Source: Pseudidiomarina andamanensis | GTDB lineage: Bacteria; Pseudomonadota; Gammaproteobacteria; Enterobacterales; Alteromonadaceae | Assembly: GCF_009734345.1 (NCBI RefSeq) | Contig: NZ_CP032551.1 | Coordinates: 930,001 to 962,000 of the forward strand | Length of the DNA: 32,000 nt | Reading direction: 5' to 3' | Position numbers and translations under genes: made by a program | The notes under the pieces: model-generated | Databases searched by the model: none | Told to the model about the DNA's origin: nothing | Seen by the model: the letters and a program-made list of their open reading frames with translations, nothing else | Shown: in pieces, positions 4,211-15,238 of the stretch | How the letters are laid out: every line of letters begins with the position of its first letter | How positions within the stretch are numbered: position 1 is the first letter of the stretch

Positions 4211-4280
4211 AAAACAAAAACGCCGCTTCATGAGCGGCGTTTTATTAGGATTTGGTGGAGCTGGCGGGAGTTGAACCCAT
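4211..4280 (-). repeat. Distal att-type direct repeat: duplicated ssrA 3' end (26 nt) plus ssrA terminator
   Basis: aaaacaaaaacgccgcttcatgagcggcgttttattaggatttggtggagctggcgggagttgaaccc(at) is near-identical to 14838-14904, the real tmRNA 3' end, and to 11652-11720. Confidence 0.85.
4216..4243 (+). terminator. Intrinsic terminator (bidirectional shape) after yebG, part of the distal ssrA repeat
   Basis: aaaaaCGCCGCTtcatgAGCGGCGtttt: a 7-bp GC stem flanked by an A-run and a T-run. Confidence 0.7.
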
Positions 4281-4304
4281 CTATTACCTTTATCTTTCAA
4301 GAGG

Positions 4305-5315
4305 CTATTTTTTTCGGCCTAAAATTTCAATGTAATCTTGCTCTAATAAATTAGAGATTGACGATTCAAGTACTTTATACGGCGGAAATATTTTTTTGAG
4401 CTTTTCAAATTTATGATTTTTATAGACTATACCAATTGGGTCATAAATTGCACATTTTGCTATAGCTTGTTTTGAAAAACATTCTTGACTGGCAATTATT
4501 AATTTAGAAGTAACTTTGAATAGGTATTCCGCCGTTTCTGGTGCTTCCTCCAGCACAGTTTCAATTGCTGTAGCAAAGGAGGTATTTGAAGCTACTTGTT
4601 CAAAGTTGTTATTTGGAATCAGAAGATTTCCATCTTCATTCGGCTCAATATTCTGAAGAATCGATTCCTTTCTAATTAGCGCAAGTTGCAATGTCTTATA
4701 AAAATGTACAAAGTCTAAATCGACCCTTGTTAGATCGATGATAATATTGCCTTTATCCCCAGTCTCAGCTTCATAAAATAACGGTTCGTAGTACTTCGAA
4801 AACCTTCCGTGCAAATATCCATATCTTGAAAATTTTATTGAGTTATACGTAATGTCATTTACATCCAATTTTGAAAATATGGCTCGGAATGCTCTAAACG
4901 CATCTGACTCATATCCCCGCAGTAAAGATGATAATGCGGCATCCGTGTCTGTCACTAATATCAATCGGGTATATAAATCCTCAATCAATTCATTTACTAA
5001 AGTTATTTCGTTAACTTCGGATTTGAGTTCGTCTTTGTCATGTACGATTTGGGCGTTATGGGCGCCTGTATATGCAGCAGCTAAAGCGCCTGTTATACCT
5101 AACAACGGTATAGTATATTTCGAACTGATAACCACACTAATAACCAAAAGAATAGCCGTTACTACAACCAAGACTTTGAGAACAAACTTAAGCGCATTCT
5201 TTTGATAGTCGTCCGATACTTTATTCTTTAGCTCACTATACGCCGTGCTTAACTTAGACAAAACACTTTGAGTTCTCCCAATTAGATTAATATTATTAAA
5301 TTTCACCTGAGCCAC
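4305..5315 (-). CDS. Hypothetical membrane protein (2 predicted TM helices plus ~240-aa soluble domain)
   Basis: 336-aa ORF, very AT-rich. The hydrophobic stretches are FVLKVLVVVTAILLVISVVI and IPLLGITGALAAAYTGA. The track start is GTG 5315. GTG 5306 has the better SD (aggtgg, 5-nt spacer) and forms a GTGA overlap with the integrase-remnant stop. No known domain recognised. Confidence 0.6.
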   Translation of the reverse strand: MAQVKFNNINLIGRTQSVLSKLSTAYSELKNKVSDDYQKNALKFVLKVLVVVTAILLVISVVISSKYTIPLLGITGALAAAYTGAHNAQIVHDKDELKSEVNEITLVNELIEDLYTRLILVTDTDAALSSLLRGYESDAFRAFRAIFSKLDVNDITYNSIKFSRYGYLHGRFSKYYEPLFYEAETGDKGNIIIDLTRVDLDFVHFYKTLQLALIRKESILQNIEPNEDGNLLIPNNNFEQVASNTSFATAIETVLEEAPETAEYLFKVTSKLIIASQECFSKQAIAKCAIYDPIGIVYKNHKFEKLKKIFPPYKVLESSISNLLEQDYIEILGRKK

Positions 5316-5925
5316 CTTTCGTAGACTTTCCGTATCATACCCCGGTCTTTATGTCCTAGTTGCCGTGCTACCCGCATCAGGTTTTCACCGTTAGTCAGCA
5401 TCGTCGATGCGCAAGTATGTCGGCATGCATCGGGCTTTAAGTATCTGACTTTAGACTGTTTTAAAGCGGGTTGCCAGTATCGTTCAACGGGCACGCCATC
5501 ATACTTCCAACGTTTGCCAGTTTTGGAGTCAAGAAACACATAGCCGGTGCGGTGAAATAATTGCCACGGAACATTTAATGCATTCTCATTCAGTTCGTGT
5601 GTTCGGTTACTGGCGGTTTTCGTACCAACTTTACGCCCTTTCATAATTGATTCACGAATGAAAATCACACCACGTTCAATATCAACATTATCCCACCGTA
5701 AACCGATTTGCTCACCAGTTCTTAGAAATGTCCCAAATGCGAACACGTAAAAATCACGGACATTGCTCCTTGGGAATACTTCCAACATTCGTTCATATTC
5801 ATCGGCATTGAATGCCTTAGCCTATTCGCGTTCAGTTCGCATTCCTTTAACGCTTTTCATCCGATTGAACTCTATGATGTCGTCATACATCAAATACAGA
5901 CTGCTACAAGGCAGCTCCATTGGTA
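5303..5925 (-). pseudogene. Tyrosine integrase remnant A (5'-truncated, internal nonsense codon)
   Basis: ORF 5303..5788 encodes the catalytic C-terminus: LRTGEQIGLRWDNV, CRHTCAST, LGHKDRGMIRKVYERWLR with the putative catalytic Tyr. Homology to integrase B continues upstream of 5788 (SLYLMYDDIIEFNRMKSVKGMRTERE*AKAFNADEYERML) through an in-frame TAG. It stops abruptly next to the 5933 gene. Confidence 0.8.
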
Positions 5926-5932
5926 GTCACTA

Positions 5933-6673
5933 TTATTCACTTATTCTAAAAACTAGAGGCTCTGGAACGGCGTACAGTAACGATCTTTTGATGCGGCCTT
6001 TAGGGAAACCTGTAACTTCAAATAGTTCGTCTTTGAGTAATGCTGCTTCCTTTGCTGTTAATCGGGGATCGAGCATTAGTTGATCAATTAGTTCACATGG
6101 GCTAACCGGATAGGAATATAGACTGTTTTTTGCTCTTCTGAAGACGTCATGATACAAAAGACGAACCTCTCTTTCGTGGCTAAAGGCACGGCGTTTAATT
6201 AACAGTGACTTGAAAATATTGATATTAGCAATTCCTAAATCACTAAATATCTCGAGTCCAAAGTCAATTAGCTTTTTCTGGGACCAATACTGAACCTTCC
6301 CAATACCACTTGTCATATATCCGAGTGGAGGATGGGCCGCCTCGATGCTTGAGAGTAGTTTCCGAATGGTTGTTCTCACTCTTATTCCCGCAAAGTCAGG
6401 TGAATAAATGCGCCACATAGCGTCTGAGGCTGAATTCAACGTCCAACATTGACCATATGTATTTTCATGGAATGGATATTCAGTCTCAAGCGTGCTTTTT
6501 TCACTTTGGATTTTCGACTTCATAAGAAGGTTTTCGAAGGGGTCGTCCCATTTACTCGGATGAGCCAAAATGTTTTTCTCTTGTTTGAAAAGCTGTAATA
6601 AATGCTCCTTTTTAAAAATCCTGTAGACCTGTTTATCGAGGCATTCGTCATGCATGTATATAAGATTTTTCAT
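5933..6673 (-). CDS. DUF2971-family protein
   Basis: 246 aa. The following motifs fit the DUF2971 pattern as I remember it: VYRIFKKEHLLQLFKQEKNILAHPSKWDDPFEN (N-terminal ...fNDPfE), CWTLNSASDAMWRIYSPDFAGIRV (...CfS..MW..Y..g..Gv), and the late HEREVRL (E.EwR) motif. Confidence 0.65.
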   Translation of the reverse strand: MKNLIYMHDECLDKQVYRIFKKEHLLQLFKQEKNILAHPSKWDDPFENLLMKSKIQSEKSTLETEYPFHENTYGQCWTLNSASDAMWRIYSPDFAGIRVRTTIRKLLSSIEAAHPPLGYMTSGIGKVQYWSQKKLIDFGLEIFSDLGIANINIFKSLLIKRRAFSHEREVRLLYHDVFRRAKNSLYSYPVSPCELIDQLMLDPRLTAKEAALLKDELFEVTGFPKGRIKRSLLYAVPEPLVFRISE

Positions 6674-6827
6674 ATGCCTCCCAAGGCACTCGATAAAAGA
6701 TTTTAAGTGTTCAAATTTCGTTTTCTTATCCTGAGGATTCCTAGTCTAATTAACGTCCTTGAGGATCTTGAAGAATCATCAAATACTTCTAAATTTAGCT
6801 AGCCAGTTAAATTAATGACACGTCCTA

Positions 6828-8231
6828 TTATGCAACTCGCTTTTGCGATGTAGTGTCAACGTCACGATTTGTCACTTTCAATGTCGATAATCTAGGCTTA
6901 ATCAACTCTGCAATCGCCCGGAAAACAGGCACGACTACCGAGTTACCAAATTGTTTATAGGCTTGCGTATCTGACACCGGAATCACGAACTCACTACCGT
7001 TTGGCGTGCTAAAACCCATTAGTCGCGAACACTCTAACGGGGTTAATCGACGGGGTCTGTTTGCTACGTTCTGCGGATCATCAAAGGGCTTGCTCGCGTC
7101 AAAGCCTCGATCGACCAGAATTTCAGAACCATCCTTGTAATAGCGCGCCGAGAGTGTACGCGCTCGATCGTTCGGGCCAACTAAACCAAATCCGAAACCA
7201 TTACCTTTCTCCTGATGCTTTTTCGCATAGTTGAACAGGTACTCCCATAGGTTTGGCGTCAATATGTACTTATTGTCAACCTCAGGCTCAAGAATATCCC
7301 CTAGCTTTGGTGCTGTGGCTTTCGATGGCTTTTTTAAATCTCTTAAGGTAAACCCTTGATGAATATTCAAATCCCGCCGAAAGCCAACCAATACGATTCG
7401 CTCTCGATGCTGAGGCACCCAGTGCGCACCATCAATAATACGAGGATCATTTGGCCCTTCATGGTTGGCATCAGCAACTTCATAGCCAAGTTCATCCAAA
7501 GCTTTCATGATCACTTTAAACGTTTTACCACGGTCGTGGCTCTTCAAGTTCTTAACGTTCTCTAACACAAAAGCCGGTGGACGCTTGGCAGCAATGATGC
7601 GAGCGACATCAAAGAACAACGTACCTTGGGTGTCACATTCAAACCCATGCTTAACACCTAATGCATTTTTCTTCGACACCCCAGCAATTGAGAACGGCTG
7701 GCATGGGAAACCAGCAAGCAATACATCGTGATCAGGAATGACAGAATCAATGTGTTCATAAGCTTTCTCATCTGACACCGACGGATCAGCGCTTAGTGTG
7801 ACATCCCGAATATCCTCATTGAATCGGTGATATTCATTGTCACACGCATAGTTAGCCTTGTAGGTACGTACCGCGAATTTATTCCACTCGCTTGTGAATA
7901 CGCATAACCCACCCTGCTCTTCGAAGCCTTTACGAATACCACCAATCCCGGCAAATAAATCAATAAAGCGGAAATCACAAGTGTCAGGTGTTACTTTCGG
8001 CTCTGGAAAAAGCTTCAGAAGATGCAGATACTCTGAGTGAGTCAAGCTAGGCGCTGCTTTACCTTTTACCCATCGGTTAATTGTCTCTCGCGTCCAACGG
8101 TTATTTGGAAGCTGATTCAAATACTCAGCAAGGAACGTTTGGTCGTATATTTCCAGTAACTTGGTAACGACTTCTAGATCAGCCATTTCGTTTCGTTGTT
8201 GTTCTTCTGTGTTCAAGCTCATCTGGTACAC
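6828..8231 (-). CDS. DNA (cytosine-5)-methyltransferase with ~85-aa N-terminal HTH-like extension (type II R-M M subunit)
   Basis: The canonical m5C motifs are present: [10 protein letters not shown] (I), GFPCQPFS (IV), ENVKNL (VI), [14 protein letters not shown] (IX), [10 protein letters not shown] (X). The N-terminal extension contains an XRE-like stretch, [21 protein letters not shown]. The GTG start at 8231 has a gggag SD 5 nt upstream. An alternative ATG lies at 8222. Confidence 0.93.
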
Positions 8232-8252
8232 TCTCGCTCCCTAGGACATTTA

Positions 8253-8269
8253 TGTGATATAAGATCACA
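8253..8269. promoter_or_regulatory. Candidate operator palindrome in the M/R divergent intergenic region
   Basis: TGTGATataagATCACA (6-bp arms, 5-nt spacer) lies 22 nt upstream of the methyltransferase start. Confidence 0.3.
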
Positions 8270-8434
8270 CAATCGTTCCAATGCGTCAACAATAAACTGA
8301 TCATTTATACAGTGTATATTTAATCATCAGTCTTGCCAGTTTATGAGATATATTTCCGTTAATGCTTACAATAATCTTTGCTATTCACTTAATCTTTACA
8401 TGTTGGTAATGTAGCCAACTGGTATAGAAAAATA

Positions 8435-9760
8435 TTGGATATCATGTTGATGGAATTAACGAATATTGTTGAGCAGATGAAGCTCAATGGAGCCAAACGG
8501 ATTTTAATTAAGGCTCTAGCGAATAACGATAATTCAAAGAATCAAATCTACCTCGGCTCAGATTTCGAGGTCATTCGCGCGATCCCATCCGGTGATGTTT
8601 ATGCGGATGGTGTAAGTAAAAAAGGCCCTATATTCAAAGCACCGTTGGATTTCTATTGGGTCACGGCTAACGGTGAAACGCAAAAAGCGCAATATGCGCA
8701 AATTATCCTCTATCCAAAATATCCTGAAACCCGCATGTCGGGATTTATGCGAGGTTGCGATCGGAATATTGCACCAAGCCATTTGATGCAGCCTCCGACA
8801 CCAGAGCAACGGGCACAGCGCCAAGGCTCAAACCGATACCTCATACTTGGCGTCAACGAAAGTTCTATATGGGCTTTTTGCACAGGCTGGGGCGGCGAGA
8901 TCCAACGAGAGGCCAAAGCGCTCATTGAAAGCGGTCAAACGACGCTTGTCGCCTCAGTTTTTCACGAATATAAAGGTAGTCAGCAATCGAGTGAAGAAAA
9001 GCTGTTACAGCGGCTGCGGGAAATATACGAACTTGGTCCTATTGAATCCTGCCGACTCAACGCAAGTGGTGAATTACTTCCATACAAAGCGCAAAATGGC
9101 GCTGGCTACACGCTTGAAGCCCAATTCGGCATCACCCCCAACGGGTCGCCAGATCCAGACTTTATGGATTGGGAGATTAAATCGCACTCAGGCGGCGCTG
9201 TTACGCTCATGACACCAGAACCTAATGTTGGCACCTACCTTGATGATTTGGAGGTGTTTTTGCGCCAATACGGCACACGTATTCAGCCTGAACGTCTAGA
9301 TTTCGCCAGTCGGCATGATGTCGGTAAGCAAAACGCTAAAACCAATCTGACCATGCACCTTGAGGGATATGACCCCAAATCAGGCAAAGTGACCGATCCT
9401 GAAGGGGGCTTGATGTTGCGCGATCCCGCCGGTGAGTTAGCAGCTGGTTGGAAGTTTGAGAAGATCATTCAGCATTGGAAGAACAAGCACTCGAATACCT
9501 GTTTTGTATCCTACACAGCTGTTAAAGAAGAAAAGGTGTACTACCAGTACGGACCTAAGGTAACGCTCGGTAAAGGAACAAGCTTAGACAAGCTGCTTAG
9601 TGCGCTCTACACCAGCACCATTTACTACGATCCTGGCGTGAATATGAAGTTGGTTGATGGTAGGTGGAAGCCCAAAAAGCGGAATCAATTTAGGGTTGGT
9701 TGGAAGAATCTAGAATATCTTTATATAACGCTTTCGGAGCGACAGCTAAATGAAACATAA
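8435..9760 (+). CDS. Type II restriction endonuclease, MutH/Sau3AI/MvaI-BcnI-like catalytic half with extra N-terminal domain
   Basis: Divergent from the m5C MTase. GAGYTLEAQFGITPNGSPDPDFMDWEIKSH matches the MutH-type signature (G..vE..lG....PDF...GvElKt; D...E-x-K). The N-terminal ~110 aa (KRILIKALANNDNSKNQIYLG...YPETRMSGF) loosely resembles EcoRII-N/B3-like effector domains. The start is uncertain: TTG 8435, ATG 8444 or ATG 8450. Confidence 0.65.
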   Translation: MDIMLMELTNIVEQMKLNGAKRILIKALANNDNSKNQIYLGSDFEVIRAIPSGDVYADGVSKKGPIFKAPLDFYWVTANGETQKAQYAQIILYPKYPETRMSGFMRGCDRNIAPSHLMQPPTPEQRAQRQGSNRYLILGVNESSIWAFCTGWGGEIQREAKALIESGQTTLVASVFHEYKGSQQSSEEKLLQRLREIYELGPIESCRLNASGELLPYKAQNGAGYTLEAQFGITPNGSPDPDFMDWEIKSHSGGAVTLMTPEPNVGTYLDDLEVFLRQYGTRIQPERLDFASRHDVGKQNAKTNLTMHLEGYDPKSGKVTDPEGGLMLRDPAGELAAGWKFEKIIQHWKNKHSNTCFVSYTAVKEEKVYYQYGPKVTLGKGTSLDKLLSALYTSTIYYDPGVNMKLVDGRWKPKKRNQFRVGWKNLEYLYITLSERQLNET

Positions 9761-9796
9761 TTTGGCGAATGCTGTGCGTTGGAAGGACTCTTACCT

Positions 9797-10531
9797 ATGA
9801 AGTTCGGTAATGAAAACGCTGTAATATGGTTGATAGCAACATCAGGAGTTCTCATATCAGGTATTTTCCTAGGCCTGATGATAAATTTAAATTCCGATAA
9901 AGTTGGGATTATATCTAACTTCGTCACCGCTGTTGGTACTTGGGGCATACTTATAACTGCGATATTTAGTTATCAAAATTGGCGTAACCAAAAAGTAACT
10001 GAAGCTCAAAGGGAAGACGCCTCAGCCGCACTTGCTCATTTGCTTTTAATTATTCCTCACAGACACAAATTGGCTATTCCGGAGTCCACTAAAAAAAGAA
10101 TAGACTCATTATTATTCGGATTAAAAACAGCTCCCGATGAGCTTACCCAACCAGAAAAAATTGTTGGTGATGCCATTCACGATGTGAATAAAAGTTTAGA
10201 AGAGGTCATCGAAGACATCTCATCTAAAGTCAACTCTGCAATAAGCTGCTCAGCTGCAATAGAACAACCAATCATTGATAAGCTTGCAAGTATAAGCTGG
10301 CAGATTCATTGCTGTAAGCAATTCGAGCGTGACTCGATAGACGATAATACTTATTTTACCGAACTTGTTAGTGCAGAGGTCAATGCACCATTAAGTAAAC
10401 AGTTTATAACGACAACGAGCACTTTCTATCTTACGAAGTACAGTTCTTTGGATCGCTTATCAGAGGTAATAAATGATATTCAAGATGTCATTGCGACCCT
10501 AAGGAAAATAGCTAGGTACGAAGCAACTTAA
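9797..10531 (+). CDS. Hypothetical membrane protein (2 N-terminal TM helices plus helical soluble domain)
   Basis: The ATG at 9797 (MKFGNENAV...) is preferred over the track's TTG at 9779. TM stretches are VIWLIATSGVLISGIFLGLMI and VTAVGTWGILITAIFSY. It begins 37 nt after the endonuclease stop on the same strand, with no terminator seen. No known domain. Confidence 0.6.
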   Translation: MKFGNENAVIWLIATSGVLISGIFLGLMINLNSDKVGIISNFVTAVGTWGILITAIFSYQNWRNQKVTEAQREDASAALAHLLLIIPHRHKLAIPESTKKRIDSLLFGLKTAPDELTQPEKIVGDAIHDVNKSLEEVIEDISSKVNSAISCSAAIEQPIIDKLASISWQIHCCKQFERDSIDDNTYFTELVSAEVNAPLSKQFITTTSTFYLTKYSSLDRLSEVINDIQDVIATLRKIARYEAT

Positions 10532-10578
10532 TTTGATCTCTTTGGTGTCAATTTAACTGATCCCAGAAGGTAAAAATC

Positions 10579-11166
10579 ATGAAACGGATTGATTTGTCTG
10601 ATTACTTAGTACATTGGACAAAACCGGTAGAGGATATGACTGCCTTAGATGTCCTAATGAAAATTATCAACGAAAGAAAAATTTTAGCCGGTAACGGCAT
10701 GATTAAAGGAGGATTTAACTGCATTTGTTTTACCGAAGCACCAAAGAATATTTTTCATAACGTTGAAAAGAATAATGCTAGATATCATCCATTTGGCATT
10801 TGTGTTCCTAAAATTGAGATCTTCCGCCTCGGAGGGCGGCCTGTCATCTATCAGCAAACTGAAGAATTCGATCTTCTTCACGAGTCTCAACAGTGGCGTC
10901 ATGTTACGTATGATCCATTCACAAATATTGATTTTACTTGGGAACGTGAGTGGCGACTGCATAGGCCTCAATTTAACTTAGAGGGAACCATAGCAGAAAT
11001 CATAGTTCCCAATGAAGACTGCCACTCACAATTACTTAACGAACATCAATATAATGAAGAGTGGCGAATATGGGGCGATATAGTTGGATATGGCGATTTT
11101 GCTGGCTTTCAAGAACCAAATGATTTTCCATTTAGAATCGTTTCGCTCCAAAACATACAAGAATAA
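10579..11166 (+). CDS. AbiGi/DUF2971-like abortive-infection-type protein
   Basis: 195 aa. DYLVHWTKPVEDMTALDVLMKIINERKILAG...NCICFTEAPKNIF...HPFGICVPK...GGRPVIYQ...WEREWRL follows the AbiGi-type pattern (HfT...l..IL..g.l....vCFte.P....yG+.f.k....g..PV.Y....E.EWR). SD is agaaggt. Confidence 0.55.
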   Translation: MKRIDLSDYLVHWTKPVEDMTALDVLMKIINERKILAGNGMIKGGFNCICFTEAPKNIFHNVEKNNARYHPFGICVPKIEIFRLGGRPVIYQQTEEFDLLHESQQWRHVTYDPFTNIDFTWEREWRLHRPQFNLEGTIAEIIVPNEDCHSQLLNEHQYNEEWRIWGDIVGYGDFAGFQEPNDFPFRIVSLQNIQE

Positions 11167-11380
11167 AGGAAAGCCAAATGCTCTGAAACTATGCCTTTTC
11201 TAGGAATAAAGCGAAAAGACTAACATTCACTACGTATTTGAATTCATAATACCAACACCTCTCCCATCAACTTGACTCGACGGTCCAATTAGTCGTCCAA
11301 TTTGTACACCTTTAGTACTCAGTAAGTTAATTGTGACTACCCCGTAAAATAAATTGAATCGCCTCTATAACAACTTAATT

Positions 11381-11409
11381 TTGCAAGTCAGCGTCTAATG
11401 TTCTATATA
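11381..11409 (+). promoter_or_regulatory. Sigma70-like promoter for the 49-aa ORF
   Basis: TTGCAA-N17-TATATA, about 40 nt upstream of the ATG at 11449. Confidence 0.4.
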
Positions 11410-11448
11410 CTCAACTGTACTACTTTAATTCAGTTCAAGGAGCCCAGC

Positions 11449-11598
11449 ATGGCTGTAAAACACACACCTACTGGTGTAGTCCACCAAGGTAAGAAAGGTG
11501 GTAAAACAGGATGCGGTTTTAATACAAACGACAACCCAACGCATTGGGTTGATTCCCACGAGAAAATAAACTGCGACAAAAAAGGTTGTAAGAATTAG
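11449..11598 (+). CDS. Small Cys/His-containing basic protein (49 aa)
   Basis: The true start is likely ATG 11449, which has an aaggag SD 6 nt upstream; the track starts at 11398. Sequence: MAVKHTPTGVVHQGKKGGKTGCGFNTNDNPTHWVDSHEKINCDKKGCKN. The ORF ends ~60 nt before the terminator copy that starts the internal repeat. Confidence 0.5.
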   Translation: MAVKHTPTGVVHQGKKGGKTGCGFNTNDNPTHWVDSHEKINCDKKGCKN

Positions 11599-11651
11599 AT
11601 AGATAAATGTCACCTGCAGACGTTTCCCCAGAGTCTTTAGAGGTAACAAGG

Positions 11652-11720
11652 AAACAAAAACGCCGCTCAACGAGCGGCGTTTTATTAGGATTTGGTGGAG
11701 CAGGCGGGAGTTGAACCCAT
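11652..11720 (-). repeat. Internal att-type direct repeat: second pseudo-copy of ssrA 3' end plus terminator
   Basis: aaacaaaaacgccgctcaacgagcggcgttttattaggatttggtggagcaggcgggagttgaaccc(at). It has one substitution in the acceptor-stem segment (gagcAggc) relative to the real gene, and no tmRNA body follows. Confidence 0.85.
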
Positions 11721-11819
11721 AAAATTTGTATTTTTCATAAATACTTATGTCTTTATCTGGACGCCTAACCATGTAAATATTAGTGATTCTTTTATAACTA
11801 TAATTTAAAGGAGCCAATA

Positions 11820-12695
11820 ATGCCAAGGGAACAACACCAGAATTTCGATATTAGTATTCACTATTCTGGCGATATCGTCACGAATGATCATAAGATTGGC
11901 TTAAGAACATATGCTAATACCTTACATCACCTATCAGCGGCCGTAGATCGGGCATTATTGAGTCATCATCGTGGACGCATTCACAAGAATGCACGAATCA
12001 CGAGGGACGAAAGAGCTGGATTAGATTTTATTGTTTTAGATCCAGAAGATAACGGAATAGTATTAAAGTTTATAGCGAATCAAAATAATCCTATCGCAAG
12101 ATTTGTAACCGAGAAAATAGCCAACTATTTGGAGGATGCTAATCGACAAGAACCCCAAGCGACAATCACCCCGGCACAGATTAGAGAAAGAATTGCGCAA
12201 ATCCAACAAGAAGACGAAATTCGCGTAGAGCAAATGCCAGATCGAGAAGATGATTTTGCGAAAAAGGCAATTTGTAGAGAAATCAATTCCATTCTGGGCG
12301 AAATAAGACACGAGCACGCAGGTCAAAGCCAAATTAGGATCGAGTTAAAAAAAGCAAATGGTGAAACTACTCGATTGGAGTTTAATAGATTCACAGCTGA
12401 AAATTTCAATAGAATCGTAAACGGTCGCTCTATCATAGGGCCATTTCTTTATCAGCTAAGGATAAAGGCTCTCGACTTAATGAATCAAAGCAAAATGCAT
12501 GCGAAATGCATAGATGTCGTGACAGGAAAACAGCGTACACTTTACTTCAAAGATTTAGCAGACCTTCAACGTATGAAAGAATACTTGACAACAGATGACG
12601 AAATATCCGTCAACATATATGGGTTTTCAATTACGGAATTTAATGTTGTCGACAATATAGCTGGTGACATTCACTTTATTGCAATTCAAGAATGA
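11820..12695 (+). CDS. Hypothetical soluble protein (291 aa), first gene of a two-gene cassette
   Basis: Strong SD (aaggag, 6-nt spacer). The N-terminal domain is followed by an acidic/Gln-rich linker (QIQQEDEIRVEQMPDREDD) and a C-terminal domain. No motif recognised. Its stop overlaps the next start (ATGA at 12692-12695). Confidence 0.65.
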   Translation: MPREQHQNFDISIHYSGDIVTNDHKIGLRTYANTLHHLSAAVDRALLSHHRGRIHKNARITRDERAGLDFIVLDPEDNGIVLKFIANQNNPIARFVTEKIANYLEDANRQEPQATITPAQIRERIAQIQQEDEIRVEQMPDREDDFAKKAICREINSILGEIRHEHAGQSQIRIELKKANGETTRLEFNRFTAENFNRIVNGRSIIGPFLYQLRIKALDLMNQSKMHAKCIDVVTGKQRTLYFKDLADLQRMKEYLTTDDEISVNIYGFSITEFNVVDNIAGDIHFIAIQE

Positions 12696-13357
12696 TAGAC
12701 ACTGTAGAGTTCGCGAAATTTAATCGGTATACAAGGACATGCTTAAATGTTGTGTCTACTTTTTTAGTGCTTTCTGCTCTCTCAAACCTTTATCAAATTC
12801 GGTTAACTGAATTCGGAAACGTCGGATTGTTCGACATTCTTTTTGAAATCGATTTTTTAACCTTATTTGATGTCTTTAAAGCATTAGATTTGAGGTTTTC
12901 CTCTGGTCTTTTTGTACTGTTTGTTTTTGTAATTTGTCATTTTATTAATCTTCTATATGTCAAGGCTATATTATGGGAGATTGAAGACTTTCTTCCAGAA
13001 ACGACAGTACATCAGGACAAATTTCAACAGAATAAAAACGAGAACACCTACTATATACGGACTGTATTCTTTAAGGCATTTATTAAGTTTAAATTAACAA
13101 GTTCACTTGTCACACTGATAAGTGGAAATGTGATCATTATGTTTCAACAAAATTTCAGCAGAAGTAGTAACTTTTCAGTTGACTATGTATACCTCACGGT
13201 ATGCCTTTTAGTTGCATTCCTTTGTTTCATCCCGGCAGCGAGAGCAATACAACAATTTTCTAGGGAGCTGCTCCTATTGCATAATGACGAGTTAATTAGG
13301 GCAAACATCAAGATAACCAATAAAGAAGCAATCAAGGAAATTTGTCGGATTTACTAG
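12692..13357 (+). CDS. Hypothetical 4-TM membrane protein (221 aa), second gene of the cassette
   Basis: Translationally coupled to 11820..12695. Hydrophobic segments are CLNVVSTFLVLSALSNLY, GLFVLFVFVICHFINLLYV, LTSSLVTLISGNVIIMF and YVYLTVCLLVAFLCFIPAA. Its stop overlaps the ancestral stop of integrase B on the opposite strand. Confidence 0.6.
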   Translation: MIDTVEFAKFNRYTRTCLNVVSTFLVLSALSNLYQIRLTEFGNVGLFDILFEIDFLTLFDVFKALDLRFSSGLFVLFVFVICHFINLLYVKAILWEIEDFLPETTVHQDKFQQNKNENTYYIRTVFFKAFIKFKLTSSLVTLISGNVIIMFQQNFSRSSNFSVDYVYLTVCLLVAFLCFIPAARAIQQFSRELLLLHNDELIRANIKITNKEAIKEICRIY

Positions 13358-14190
13358 GTTATCCACCGACCATAGACTTACCTTATCATACCCCAATCTT
13401 TATGACCTAGCTGCCGAGCGACCCACATAGGGTTTTCACCGTTCGTAAGCATAGTCGATGCGTATGTGTGACGATACGCATAAGGCTTTAAGTATCTGAC
13501 TTTAGAATGTTTTAATGCAGGTTGCCAGTACCGCTCGCGGGGAATGCCATCGTACTTCCAACGTTTGCCAGTTTGTGGGTCAAGAAATACAGAGCCGGTG
13601 CGGTGAGCTAATCGCTTCAGAACAGCCAATGCGTTCTCATGCAATTCGTGTGTTCGGTTACTGCCAGCGGTTTTCGTACCAGCTTTACGCCCTTTCACGA
13701 TTGATTCACGAATGAAAATCACACCGCGTTCAAGAACAACATTATCCCAACGCAAGCCGATTTGCTCACCCGTTCTTAGACCTGTCCAAAATGCGAACTC
13801 GTAAAAGTCACGAGCATAGCCCTCTGGTAGTGCTGCCAGTATTCGTTCACGTTCGTCGGCATTGAATGGCTGAACTTCTTCACGCTCGGTTTTCATGCGT
13901 TTAACACTTTTCATTGGGTTACGCTCAATGATATCGTCATAAACCAAATAATCGAACGCTTGGCTCAATAGGCTATGCACTTCATTGGCGGTTTTGGGGT
14001 TCAACCTCGTCTTGCGTTGCCATTTGCGAAAATGGGATGGTTTGAAGTCGCACACCCGAAGCTGACCGAAGTTTGGCAAAATGTGGTTATCCATCCGACC
14101 GCTATTTCTTTGAGTGCACAATACGCCCAATCTCTATATCTTTACTTGGACCATTGTTCGCACATTTCGATAACTGTGAGTGATGCCAAA
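13354..14190 (-). pseudogene. Tyrosine integrase remnant B (premature stop before the catalytic Tyr, 5' frameshift and truncation)
   Basis: ORF 13378..14130 carries LRTGEQIGLRWDNV, YRHTYAST and LGHKDWGMIR, then TAA. Reading through that stop gives VYGRWIT*, i.e. the conserved catalytic-Tyr tail (copy A has K-VYERWLR*). Upstream of 14130 another frame reads LTVIEMCEQWSK*, which looks like a shifted N-terminal segment. There is no room for an Arm-binding domain before 14252. Confidence 0.8.
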
Positions 14191-14251
14191 TTATTGTTTA
14201 GATAGTTAATTTACTGACGGGAATTTCTTCGACAAATTTACCCTCTACAAA

Positions 14252-14554
14252 TCAACCATCACAAGCGCAACCTTTTCCTTTATTGCAATTTTTACTTCTT
14301 GAAATGCAACTATCACCGCATGCTTTCCCTTTCCTGCAAACCTTGCAGCATTTTGCATACTCTGATATCTCATCAGGAGACGCTTTTGAGAATGAATCAT
14401 TTAATTCAACCACAACATCGTTACATTCAACGTTCACCGATTGAACCGTTGAATTCACATTATTAGGTATTGTCGAAATGTCTTGGGCTATAACGCTTTG
14501 AGCAAAAAAGATCGTTGAAGCAATACCCAAGTAAATCAAAGATTGACGCATCAT
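14252..14554 (-). CDS. Secreted cysteine-rich small protein (100 aa)
   Basis: Signal peptide MMRQSLIYLGIASTIFFAQSVIAQ, with a strong aaggag SD. The C-terminus CCKVCRKGKACGDSCISRSKNCNKGKGCACDG has 8 Cys in 32 residues. Confidence 0.65.
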   Translation of the reverse strand: MMRQSLIYLGIASTIFFAQSVIAQDISTIPNNVNSTVQSVNVECNDVVVELNDSFSKASPDEISEYAKCCKVCRKGKACGDSCISRSKNCNKGKGCACDG

Positions 14555-14696
14555 CTGACTCCTTAATATTGTTTACTTATCACTATCTATTTAGCTAATG
14601 TTTTGTGATATACCAAATTTAATAATTTGATTTGAATATTTAACAGAGCGGACTAAATTTAATCGGTGAAGAGTTAAACGTTTGGAGGTGATTGAA

Positions 14697-14819
14697 ATGA
14701 CAATTAAGCCCGGTCCAAAGCCGAAAGCGGAATCAACTGGAAAAACTGATAAACGGCGTAGAGTGACAGAAGAAAACAAACCAAAACATCCGTCTTTGAA
14801 AAAACACGAACATAAATAA
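14697..14819 (+). CDS. Possible 40-aa lysine-rich peptide
   Basis: Not in the track (below 60 aa). SD ggaggtg lies 6 nt before ATG 14697. My translation is MTIKPGPKPKAESTGKTDKRRRVTEENKPKHPSLKKHEHK, with the stop at 14817-14819. The terminator follows about 20 nt later. Confidence 0.35.
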   Translation: MTIKPGPKPKAESTGKTDKRRRVTEENKPKHPSLKKHEHK

Positions 14820-14841
14820 TCGATTATTGAATTTTAAAAAC

Positions 14842-14869
14842 AAAAACGCCGCTCAATGAGCGGCGTTTT
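14842..14869 (-). terminator. ssrA intrinsic terminator (bidirectional shape)
   Basis: aaaaaCGCCGCTcaatgAGCGGCGtttt lies about 10 nt downstream of the tmRNA CCA end on the minus strand. Confidence 0.8.
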
Positions 14870-14878
14870 ATTTGGATT

Positions 14879-15238
14879 TGGTGGAGCTGGCGGGAGTTGA
14901 ACCCGCGTCCGTAATACCTACATCCTCGGTCCTACATGCTTAGTCAGTCTTTTAGTTAATCACCAAGTCGCCGACAGACAGGCTACTTAAGGTGACGATC
15001 CCGATTGGTTTTAACGCTTTGGCTACGGGCGAAGCCTCCACGCGAGTCTGCTTTGGGGTGAACCGACTGATCCTAGTCTCACAGACAAAGCGCTAGGGGT
15101 CGGACTCAGCGGGTTATTAAGCCGCTAAAGCGTAGTTGTCGTCGTTTGCAACTATTAAGTTGAGGCTTTTTACGAGGCCAGCCTCACCTCGGCATGCACC
15201 TTGGGTTTCGTTTATTCCGTCGAATCCAAATCAGCCCC
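14879..15238 (-). ncRNA. ssrA: tmRNA (SsrA), one-piece, ~360 nt
   Basis: The minus strand starts GGGGCTGATTTGGATTCGACGG and ends GGGTTCAACTCCCGCCAGCTCCACCA. The tag reading frame is GCA AAC GAC GAC AAC TAC GCT TTA GCG GCT TAA TAA (15149 down to 15114), giving ANDDNYALAA. Confidence 0.95.

Follow-up and report, generated by a model that had tools for sequence, protein, structure and literature searches.

A 32,000-nucleotide stretch of the Pseudidiomarina andamanensis genome (NZ_CP032551.1, positions 930,001 to 962,000; hereafter, at its full length, the window) carries three consecutive genes on one strand, encoding a restriction endonuclease (R), a 244-residue protein with two transmembrane (TM) helices (the 2-TM protein) and a 195-residue protein (the 195-aa protein). 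These genes are likely to belong to three separable units stacked in a degraded tandem island at the tmRNA gene ssrA, namely a Type II restriction-modification (R-M) system, a membrane protein linked to R, and a solo protein of the AbiGi superfamily with an ADP-ribosyltransferase (ART) fold. The initial annotation of this DNA had instead proposed that the 2-TM and 195-aa genes could form a distinct two-component abortive-infection module, or a back-up layer coupled to restriction. We read their juxtaposition as adjacency in a cargo-swapping island and not as a conserved module, because no 2-TM homologue occurs at the loci of relatives of the 195-aa protein and the 2-TM gene is found elsewhere without an AbiGi-like gene. 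The three genes and the hairpin that follows them are:

8435-9760, + strand, restriction endonuclease R, 441 aa, from the list of open reading frames (ORFs)
9797-10531, + strand, gene of the 2-TM protein (P0121), 244 aa from the ATG used as start by NCBI, 250 aa from a TTG at 9779
10579-11166, + strand, gene of the 195-aa protein (P0001), from the ORF list
11657-11683, no strand assigned, GC-rich palindrome with flanking A and T runs, 12-bp stem with 7 GC pairs

P0001 and P0121 correspond verbatim to public entries, both of them hypothetical proteins of Pseudidiomarina andamanensis.

Gene layout and transcription signals

The positions and common strand of the three genes agree with the initial annotation, which put the spacers at 37 and 47 nt; the second value is correct (10532-10578), the first is 36 nt (9761-9796). 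Plausible ribosome-binding sites (RBS) precede both downstream genes, AAGGA 9 nt ahead of ATG 9797 and GAAGGT 8 nt ahead of ATG 10579. A consensus scan returned no terminator-like site on the + strand from 8435 to 11166 and no promoter-like site in either spacer, and it placed a promoter-like site at 8343-8372, upstream of R. The first strong terminator-like hairpin 3' of the three genes is the palindrome at 11657-11683, the right half of which lies inside an internal attachment (att) repeat. The earlier statements that no terminator hairpin separates the genes and that co-transcription is plausible are therefore upheld. Judged from the spacing only, the three genes are probably co-transcribed, and a single transcript would then begin at the 8343-8372 site and extend through to the hairpin.

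The GC content is 0.47 in R and 0.38 in both the 2-TM and the 195-aa gene. On its other side the 195-aa gene is bordered by a 283-nt gap. The 47-nt spacing, the common strand, the lack of a terminator- or promoter-like site between the two genes and their equal, low GC content all favour a dedicated two-component abortive-infection module, in which the membrane protein would replace AbiGii and which might serve as a back-up to restriction. The loci of relatives, described in the following section, argue against it.

Loci of relatives and a sister island

The analysis covered 80 genomic and 41 viral loci with a relative of the 195-aa protein. A 2-TM homologue was present in none of the 121, neither by single-sequence search nor with a six-sequence profile. 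At the genomic loci the adjacent genes vary in size, strand and membrane character; a neighbour with at least two TM helices occurs at about five of the 80, and membrane neighbours are not enriched. All-versus-all clustering of the four genes on each side yielded no gene family present in more than three genomic loci, and when 145 flanking genes were scanned with Pfam, each family was limited to three genes at most. The ten Pfam families found in at least two of these 145 genes are of HTH, TPR, TIR, AAA and HNH types; AbiGii, macrodomain and R-M families are not among them. Neither a conserved 2-TM partner, the lack of which the initial annotation had itself named as refuting its proposal, nor recurrent proximity to an R-M system was thus found. 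Two plasmid relatives, annotated as AbiGi-family or DUF2971 proteins, likewise stand alone in neighbourhoods of defence type, where one of them adjoins a Shedu nuclease, and have no AbiGii. In bacterial genomes the 195-aa family behaves as a stand-alone gene.

The reciprocal picture comes from the 2-TM gene, since no AbiGi-like gene was found at any of its other loci (L081, L085-L092 and L136). The closest of these, L081, is a 7.7-kb metagenomic contig that represents a sister ssrA island, in which the genes of the methyltransferase (M), R and the 2-TM protein are followed first by four unrelated genes and then by an intact integrase and the tmRNA end. Positions 6898-10586 of the window match L081 115-3802 at 92% DNA identity (blastn), and homology then ends. 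Compared base by base, the 10532-10578 spacer, the RBS and ATGAAACG are common to the window and L081, and similarity fades within about 7 codons of the 195-aa ORF; the matching ATG in L081 opens only a 37-aa ORF. The start of this remnant, ATGAAACG...MKRxDxS, hints at ancestral adjacency and is a further point in favour of the two-component module. The slot after the 2-TM gene is filled in L081 (3865-6238) by genes for proteins of 131 aa (PDC-S15-like C-terminus, PADLOC E 1e-8) and 381 aa, for a DUF4325 protein and for one of 152 aa, which may be another candidate defence cassette. The position 3' of the 2-TM gene would hence appear to act as a swappable cargo slot, the contents of which differ between the sister islands.

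The 2-TM orthologue of L081 (P0122) is 83-84% identical to the window protein, with a ratio of non-synonymous to synonymous substitution rates (dN/dS) of 0.255 and the first 95 residues identical; on this basis the 2-TM gene is real and under purifying selection. It is thus kept under selection in L081 without an AbiGi-like gene, and it stands without one in every other context found. Together with the empty count at the 121 homologue loci and the lack of a conserved neighbour of any kind at the genomic ones, this makes a dedicated two-component module highly improbable. In this case the tight spacing of genes within a defence island was no guide to a system, and one sister island plus about 120 homologue loci sufficed to separate the genes.

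Family, motifs and fold of the 195-aa protein

The 195-aa protein has 984 homologues, mostly of about 190 aa, the nearest 51% identical, and the family alignment contains 27 invariant columns: C48, C50, F51, E53, P55, Y69, G73, K78, GGRPV then Y-Q (85-92), L100, WRH (106-108), D118, WEREWR (121-126) and P144. The gene is therefore real. At least 90% of the family sequences have H12, which stands in an LVHWTK segment. Putative motifs of the protein are H12-x-T14, C50-F-T52-E53, Y91 and E122-R-E124.

The label AbiGi/DUF2971-like, given in the initial annotation, holds at the level of the superfamily, through relatives and fold; it fails in direct search, in which the protein itself matched neither PF10899 nor PF11185 at E ≤ 10. 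More generally, the 195-aa protein has no match in Pfam (E ≤ 10), PADLOC, NCBIfam or PHROG, and a sequence-profile search of the PDB with the family alignment returned nothing at E ≤ 10. Its relatives are more informative. PF10899 (AbiGi) matches 20 of 28 aligned relatives at E ≤ 10, and three of the 28 exceed its gathering score of 22.4 bits (31.8, 27.6 and 27.2 bits, collinear). The PADLOC AbiGi model matches 14 family members weakly and the 195-aa protein itself not at all. Aligned with a Rhizobium plasmid protein named 'AbiGi family' by NCBI, the family profile gave a probability of 97.5% in hhalign (E 6.5e-12, 142 columns), with the HxT, CFxE, GGxP and WEREWR motifs in register. A Paenibacillus plasmid protein annotated as DUF2971 is 40% identical to the 195-aa protein over 141 aligned positions. 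No match to PF11185 or PDC-S31 was obtained for the 195-aa protein or its relatives.

An AlphaFold2 model of the protein reached a predicted local distance difference test score (pLDDT) of 89.5 and a predicted template-modelling score (pTM) of 0.83. In a Foldseek comparison with the PDB the top four hits were DarT structures, which are the sole credible matches among solved structures (best 7omw; E 2.7e-4, probability 1.0, TM-score 0.44). In the model, H12 lies on the first strand (9-13), C50-F-T52-E53 on the strand 48-52, and E122-R-E124 leads into the strand 124-127. H12, CFTE and ExE succeed one another as ART motifs I, II and III would be expected to, and we putatively assign them to these motifs. 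DUF2971, AbiGi and DarT are mutually similar, and AbiGi is a listed ART family (PMC12522546). Its predicted fold and the profiles of its relatives place the 195-aa protein in the AbiGi/DUF2971 ART-like superfamily, with its family towards the edge of that group, and by analogy it may be a NAD+-dependent ADP-ribosyltransferase forming a single-gene module. What is new is thus a divergent, solo AbiGi/DUF2971 ART-like protein, of a kind already known. The published Lsan_2474 family, considered as a possible identity, was ruled out: its motifs are Kxx / [CS]Mx / QxE, against HxT / CFT / ExE here.

The Pfam and NCBI name 'AbiGi, antitoxin' could be taken to mean that the two genes are a toxin-antitoxin pair, in which the 2-TM protein would be a toxin that damages the membrane and its antitoxin would be the AbiGi-like protein. 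Apart from this name, the only point in favour of such a pair is a weak match of the 2-TM protein to the PADLOC '2TM effector' model (PDLC00707; E 0.005, 14 bits). Set against these, the 2-TM gene is intact in six other contexts without an AbiGi-like gene, the AbiGi-like family is nearly always solo, and the fold and the invariant ExE point to an enzyme and not to a passive antitoxin. A pair of this kind is scarcely credible.

Viral relatives of the 195-aa protein

About 31 of the 41 viral contigs (IMG/VR, L093-L133) carry the homologue in a head-morphogenesis module, in the order small and large terminase, portal, Phage_Mu_F (PF04233, E 9.6e-11), homologue, DUF2213 scaffold/protease-like protein and DUF6260 capsid-like protein. 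A MuF-like gene stands beside the homologue in 18 viral loci, the gaps seen being about 7-68 nt (e.g. L109:4961-6621). The phage copies are 26-43% identical, mostly over the catalytic core only. A tblastn search of GenBank phages with the 195-aa protein gave one weak match, to an unannotated fragment. MuF proteins carry toxin domains, among which ARTs are frequent, and injection together with the DNA has been proposed for them (PMC5576092). The gene order suggests that the phage relatives could be head-packaged or injected ADP-ribosyltransferases encoded as a separate ORF, and it would seem that phages make use of a family that is also borne in bacterial islands.

From this it might be supposed that the 195-aa gene is itself a captured phage effector, i.e. 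a head-packaged, injected ART, of which the island copy is a remnant or serves in competition between elements. The head-module position in most of the viral contigs, the adjoining MuF-like genes and the frequency of ART domains among MuF-associated toxins are in line with such an origin. The gene in the window, however, lies among defence genes (R-M, PDC-S31) and has no phage structural neighbours, the 80 closest genomic relatives are outside head modules, and the low identity of the phage copies, largely confined to the catalytic core, also counts against it. Hence we regard capture from a phage as unlikely. The MuF-adjacent relatives nevertheless temper an automatic 'defence' label for the 195-aa family.

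The 2-TM protein and its relatives

Two hydrophobic segments near the N-terminus of the 2-TM protein (Kyte-Doolittle) coincide with the claim of two N-terminal TM helices in the initial annotation, and so does the AlphaFold model, which is all-helical (pLDDT 79.6) with helices at 5-30 and 34-83. Arg and Lys residues after the second helix suggest that the protein may form a hairpin of N-in/C-in topology, the helical C-terminal domain of which would lie in the cytoplasm. The model has no meaningful fold match in the PDB, and the sequence belongs to no Pfam, NCBIfam or PHROG family, so that the description as a membrane protein without recognisable domain stands.

The protein is very rare, with two entries among 5.8e9 clustered proteins. 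An exhaustive HMMER scan of 1.84e9 representatives gave six matches, one of them a giant repeat protein (P0124), which was rejected as a spurious low-complexity or coiled-coil artefact; a profile search added one further family member. A distant relative over the full length, P0123 (E 1.8e-33), is encoded by the last gene of a Type I hsdM-hsdS-hsdR operon (L085:962-8168), where it overlaps hsdR by 14 nt and is followed by an integrase fragment and a gene for an OLD-family (AAA_15/TOPRIM) ATPase. The other relatives mainly have the N-terminal hairpin in common and are stand-alone genes: P0126 and P0128 occupy an accessory-gene slot of a prophage, adjoining DUF4411/Peptidase_M78, P0125 lies in a mobile region with AAA ATPase, subtilase and umuDC-like genes, and P0127 (Pseudidiomarina sediminum) adjoins HipA_2/DUF3037.

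Conservation between the window and L081 is uneven along the 2-TM gene. Within the cassette, conservation is highest from the 3' end of R across the spacer and on through codon 95 of the 2-TM gene (synonymous divergence, dS, 0.03), with about 100% identity to L081 at 9527-9976; the C-terminal half of the gene has 77-85% identity, a dS of about 0.8 and dN/dS of 0.15-0.28. This mosaic suggests either recombination within the gene or a cytoplasmic domain that may be diversifying on a fixed membrane anchor.

R and the 2-TM protein could in principle form a functional unit, in which the membrane protein tethers or regulates the endonuclease or kills the cell upon failed restriction, with the AbiGi-like gene as unrelated cargo. 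Three of the seven known 90%-identity clusters (P0121, P0122, P0123) have the 2-TM gene directly after a restriction-subunit gene, in two independent lineages and two unrelated types of system, Type II (window and L081, 36-nt gap) and Type I (L085-L087, 14-nt overlap), and the shared stretch that is best conserved spans the junction of R with the 5' half of the 2-TM gene. Conversely, the other four clusters (P0125-P0128) have no R-M system adjacent, the family is tiny with only those two lineages, and in more distant plasmid homologues of R the 3' gene is Vsr or unrelated and never the 2-TM gene. A unit of R and the 2-TM protein is a possibility that we consider doubtful. We infer that the 244-aa protein is an accessory or stand-alone factor of defence or exclusion. 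That it ends restriction operons of Type I as well as of Type II provides a small, concrete lead to an R-M accessory function.

The restriction-modification genes

The partner of R is its divergently oriented neighbour:

6828-8231, - strand, C5 cytosine DNA methyltransferase M, Dcm-like, divergent from R (PF00145, E 3.5e-76, and PF18284; PADLOC MTase_II, E 1.7e-205)

R is an endonuclease of the MvaI/BcnI family (PF15515, E 2.8e-40, residues 191-430), and its full-length plasmid homologues carry the MvaI/BcnI family annotation. M is 95% identical to its L081 orthologue at the amino acid level, with dN/dS of 0.075; the value for R is 0.10. M and R are a Type II R-M system.

Residues 1-190 of R (8435-9004) lie outside the MvaI/BcnI domain and have no Pfam match; they are kept in the full-length plasmid homologues at 36-49% identity. 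Plasmid homologues of R are often accompanied by Vsr, which is absent in the window.

The tandem islands at ssrA

The setting of the genes is defined by the following features:

14879-15238, - strand, tmRNA gene (ssrA), island integration site (ARAGORN; Rfam RF00023, 243 bits)
11674-11718, + strand, internal att repeat copy, which divides the two tandem islands (alignment, blastn)
4234-4278, + strand, distal att repeat copy, outer island boundary (alignment, blastn)
5933-6673, - strand, separate 246-aa DUF2971 / PADLOC PDC-S31 protein (PF11185, E 6.7e-6; PDC-S31, E 1.6e-81)

A repeat of about 45 nt that holds the 3' end of ssrA is present in three direct copies, at 14860-14904, 11674-11718 and 4234-4278 (blastn and alignment with the L081 end), and two integrase genes, at 13378-14130 and 5303-5788, are both truncated. 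Because of these three copies, the tmRNA gene and the two truncated integrases, the region 4279-14859 is interpreted as two tandem, decayed islands at ssrA; as both integrases are truncated, the islands are probably immobilised.

The distal island has the gene order 336-aa ORF, integrase fragment, DUF2971/PDC-S31, C5 methyltransferase, R, 2-TM, 195-aa and a small Cys-rich ORF. The direct DUF2971 match in the island thus stems from the 5933-6673 gene and not from the 195-aa gene, and hhalign found no link between the 195-aa family profile and this DUF2971 protein (Prob 0.2). The 5933-6673 protein is a second ART-like candidate defence gene, on the opposite side of the R-M pair. The small ORF (11450-11598, + strand; 49 aa, MAVKHTPTGVVHQGKKGGKTGCGFNTNDNPTHWVDSHEKINCDKKGCKN) lies between the 195-aa gene and the hairpin, is rich in Cys, His and Lys, and has a good RBS (AAGGAG) and no PADLOC match.

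In the proximal island a 291-aa protein is encoded at 11820-12695 (+ strand; PHROG 28486, E 1e-37), and its gene overlaps by 4 nt a 221-aa ORF at 12692-13357 (+ strand), the product of which looks strongly hydrophobic as judged by eye. The arrangement resembles a coupled gene pair, perhaps a further candidate module of defence or exclusion. Between the truncated integrase and the tmRNA gene, a 100-aa ORF (14252-14554, - strand) begins like a signal peptide, has a Cys-rich C-terminus (CCKVCRKGKACGDSCISRSKNCNKGKGCACDG) and is without a PADLOC match.

Assessment of the proposed arrangement

According to the reading favoured here, in which the island stacks three separable units, the divergent Dcm-like C5 methyltransferase and the MvaI/BcnI-family endonuclease would make up the R-M unit. 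The 2-TM anchor would hold a fast-evolving cytoplasmic helical domain at the membrane. The 195-aa enzyme would most likely modify nucleic acid, or else a phage or host protein, during infection, and would, as a single-gene module like Aristaios, need neither AbiGii nor the 2-TM protein.

Several points weigh against this interpretation. Co-transcription and any defence role are inferences. The 195-aa protein itself scores below every curated profile, the TM-scores to DarT are modest (0.44), and the putative catalytic residues were assigned via conservation and the order of secondary structure. For a toxic DarT-like enzyme one would expect an antitoxin, and none is evident; the phage relatives beside MuF head genes point to an origin in phage offence and not in defence. 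Finally, over its first 7 codons the 195-aa ORF is similar to the remnant ORF of L081, so the adjacency of the 2-TM and AbiGi-like genes may be ancestral to both islands, and, only two genomes being compared, a lineage-specific functional link between the two may exist.

A more far-reaching proposal, which we put forward with considerable doubt, is that the 244-aa protein founds a very rare membrane-hairpin family, located at the 3' end of varied restriction operons or alone in defence and prophage slots and built from a conserved 2-TM anchor and a fast-diversifying helical domain, and that the solo 195-aa family would be a partner-less, DarT-like ART of bacteria and phages acting on nucleic acid. 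If it were true that the helical domain senses phage or failing restriction and that the hairpin either damages the membrane or prevents the entry of DNA, the outcome would be a new, restriction-coupled second line of defence. The 195-aa family, with its roughly 1000 solo AbiGi-like members of about 190 aa, a confident DarT-like model, invariant residues of putative catalytic role and an occurrence in bacterial islands as well as beside phage MuF head genes, is a candidate and tractable route to what AbiGi-type ARTs modify, lactococcal AbiG included.

Comparison with known systems

Like the 2TM effectors of CBASS, the 244-aa protein is small, has a 2-TM hairpin at its N-terminus and is located in defence islands or in a prophage accessory-gene slot. 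It differs from them in having no significant sequence or fold match and no cyclase or signalling partner; a Pfam scan revealed no CD-NTase-like gene in the island. Exclusion proteins of the Sie/Imm type, known from prophages, may also resemble the 244-aa protein in general terms, again with no significant sequence or fold match.

For the 195-aa protein, AbiGi (PF10899) is related at the level of profiles and through the three relatives above the Pfam cut-off, but the protein itself does not match PF10899. Lactococcal AbiGi has about 250 aa, and the 195-aa protein is shorter. Lactococcal AbiG consists of two genes, AbiGi and AbiGii, both of which are needed, and its mechanism is unknown (PMC13064643). 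An AbiGii-type neighbour, by contrast, is absent in the window and not recurrent beside the relatives, and the 195-aa protein should not be filed as an AbiG system.

DarT resembles the 195-aa protein in fold and in size (about 200 aa), yet identity is only 13-14% with the TM-score given above, and no DarT Pfam match was obtained at E ≤ 10. Unlike in DarTG, a DarG-type macrodomain antitoxin is absent beside the 195-aa gene, and macrodomains are not common near its relatives. As regards the MuF-associated phage toxins and injected ARTs (EFV toxin, T4 Alt-type), the viral relatives adjoin a Phage_Mu_F gene but as separate, unfused ORFs, and the copy in the window is without phage structural context.

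A further parallel is found in Aristaios and the DUF2971/PDC-S31 proteins, which like the 195-aa gene are solo, have an ART-like fold and are set in defence islands. Aristaios differs in length (316 aa against 195 aa), and the 195-aa protein lacks a PF11185 or PDC-S31 match. Aristaios is a single-gene defence of the DUF2971/ART fold validated in Lactococcus (PMC11381338) and, because it defends alone, action of the 195-aa protein without a partner is credible.

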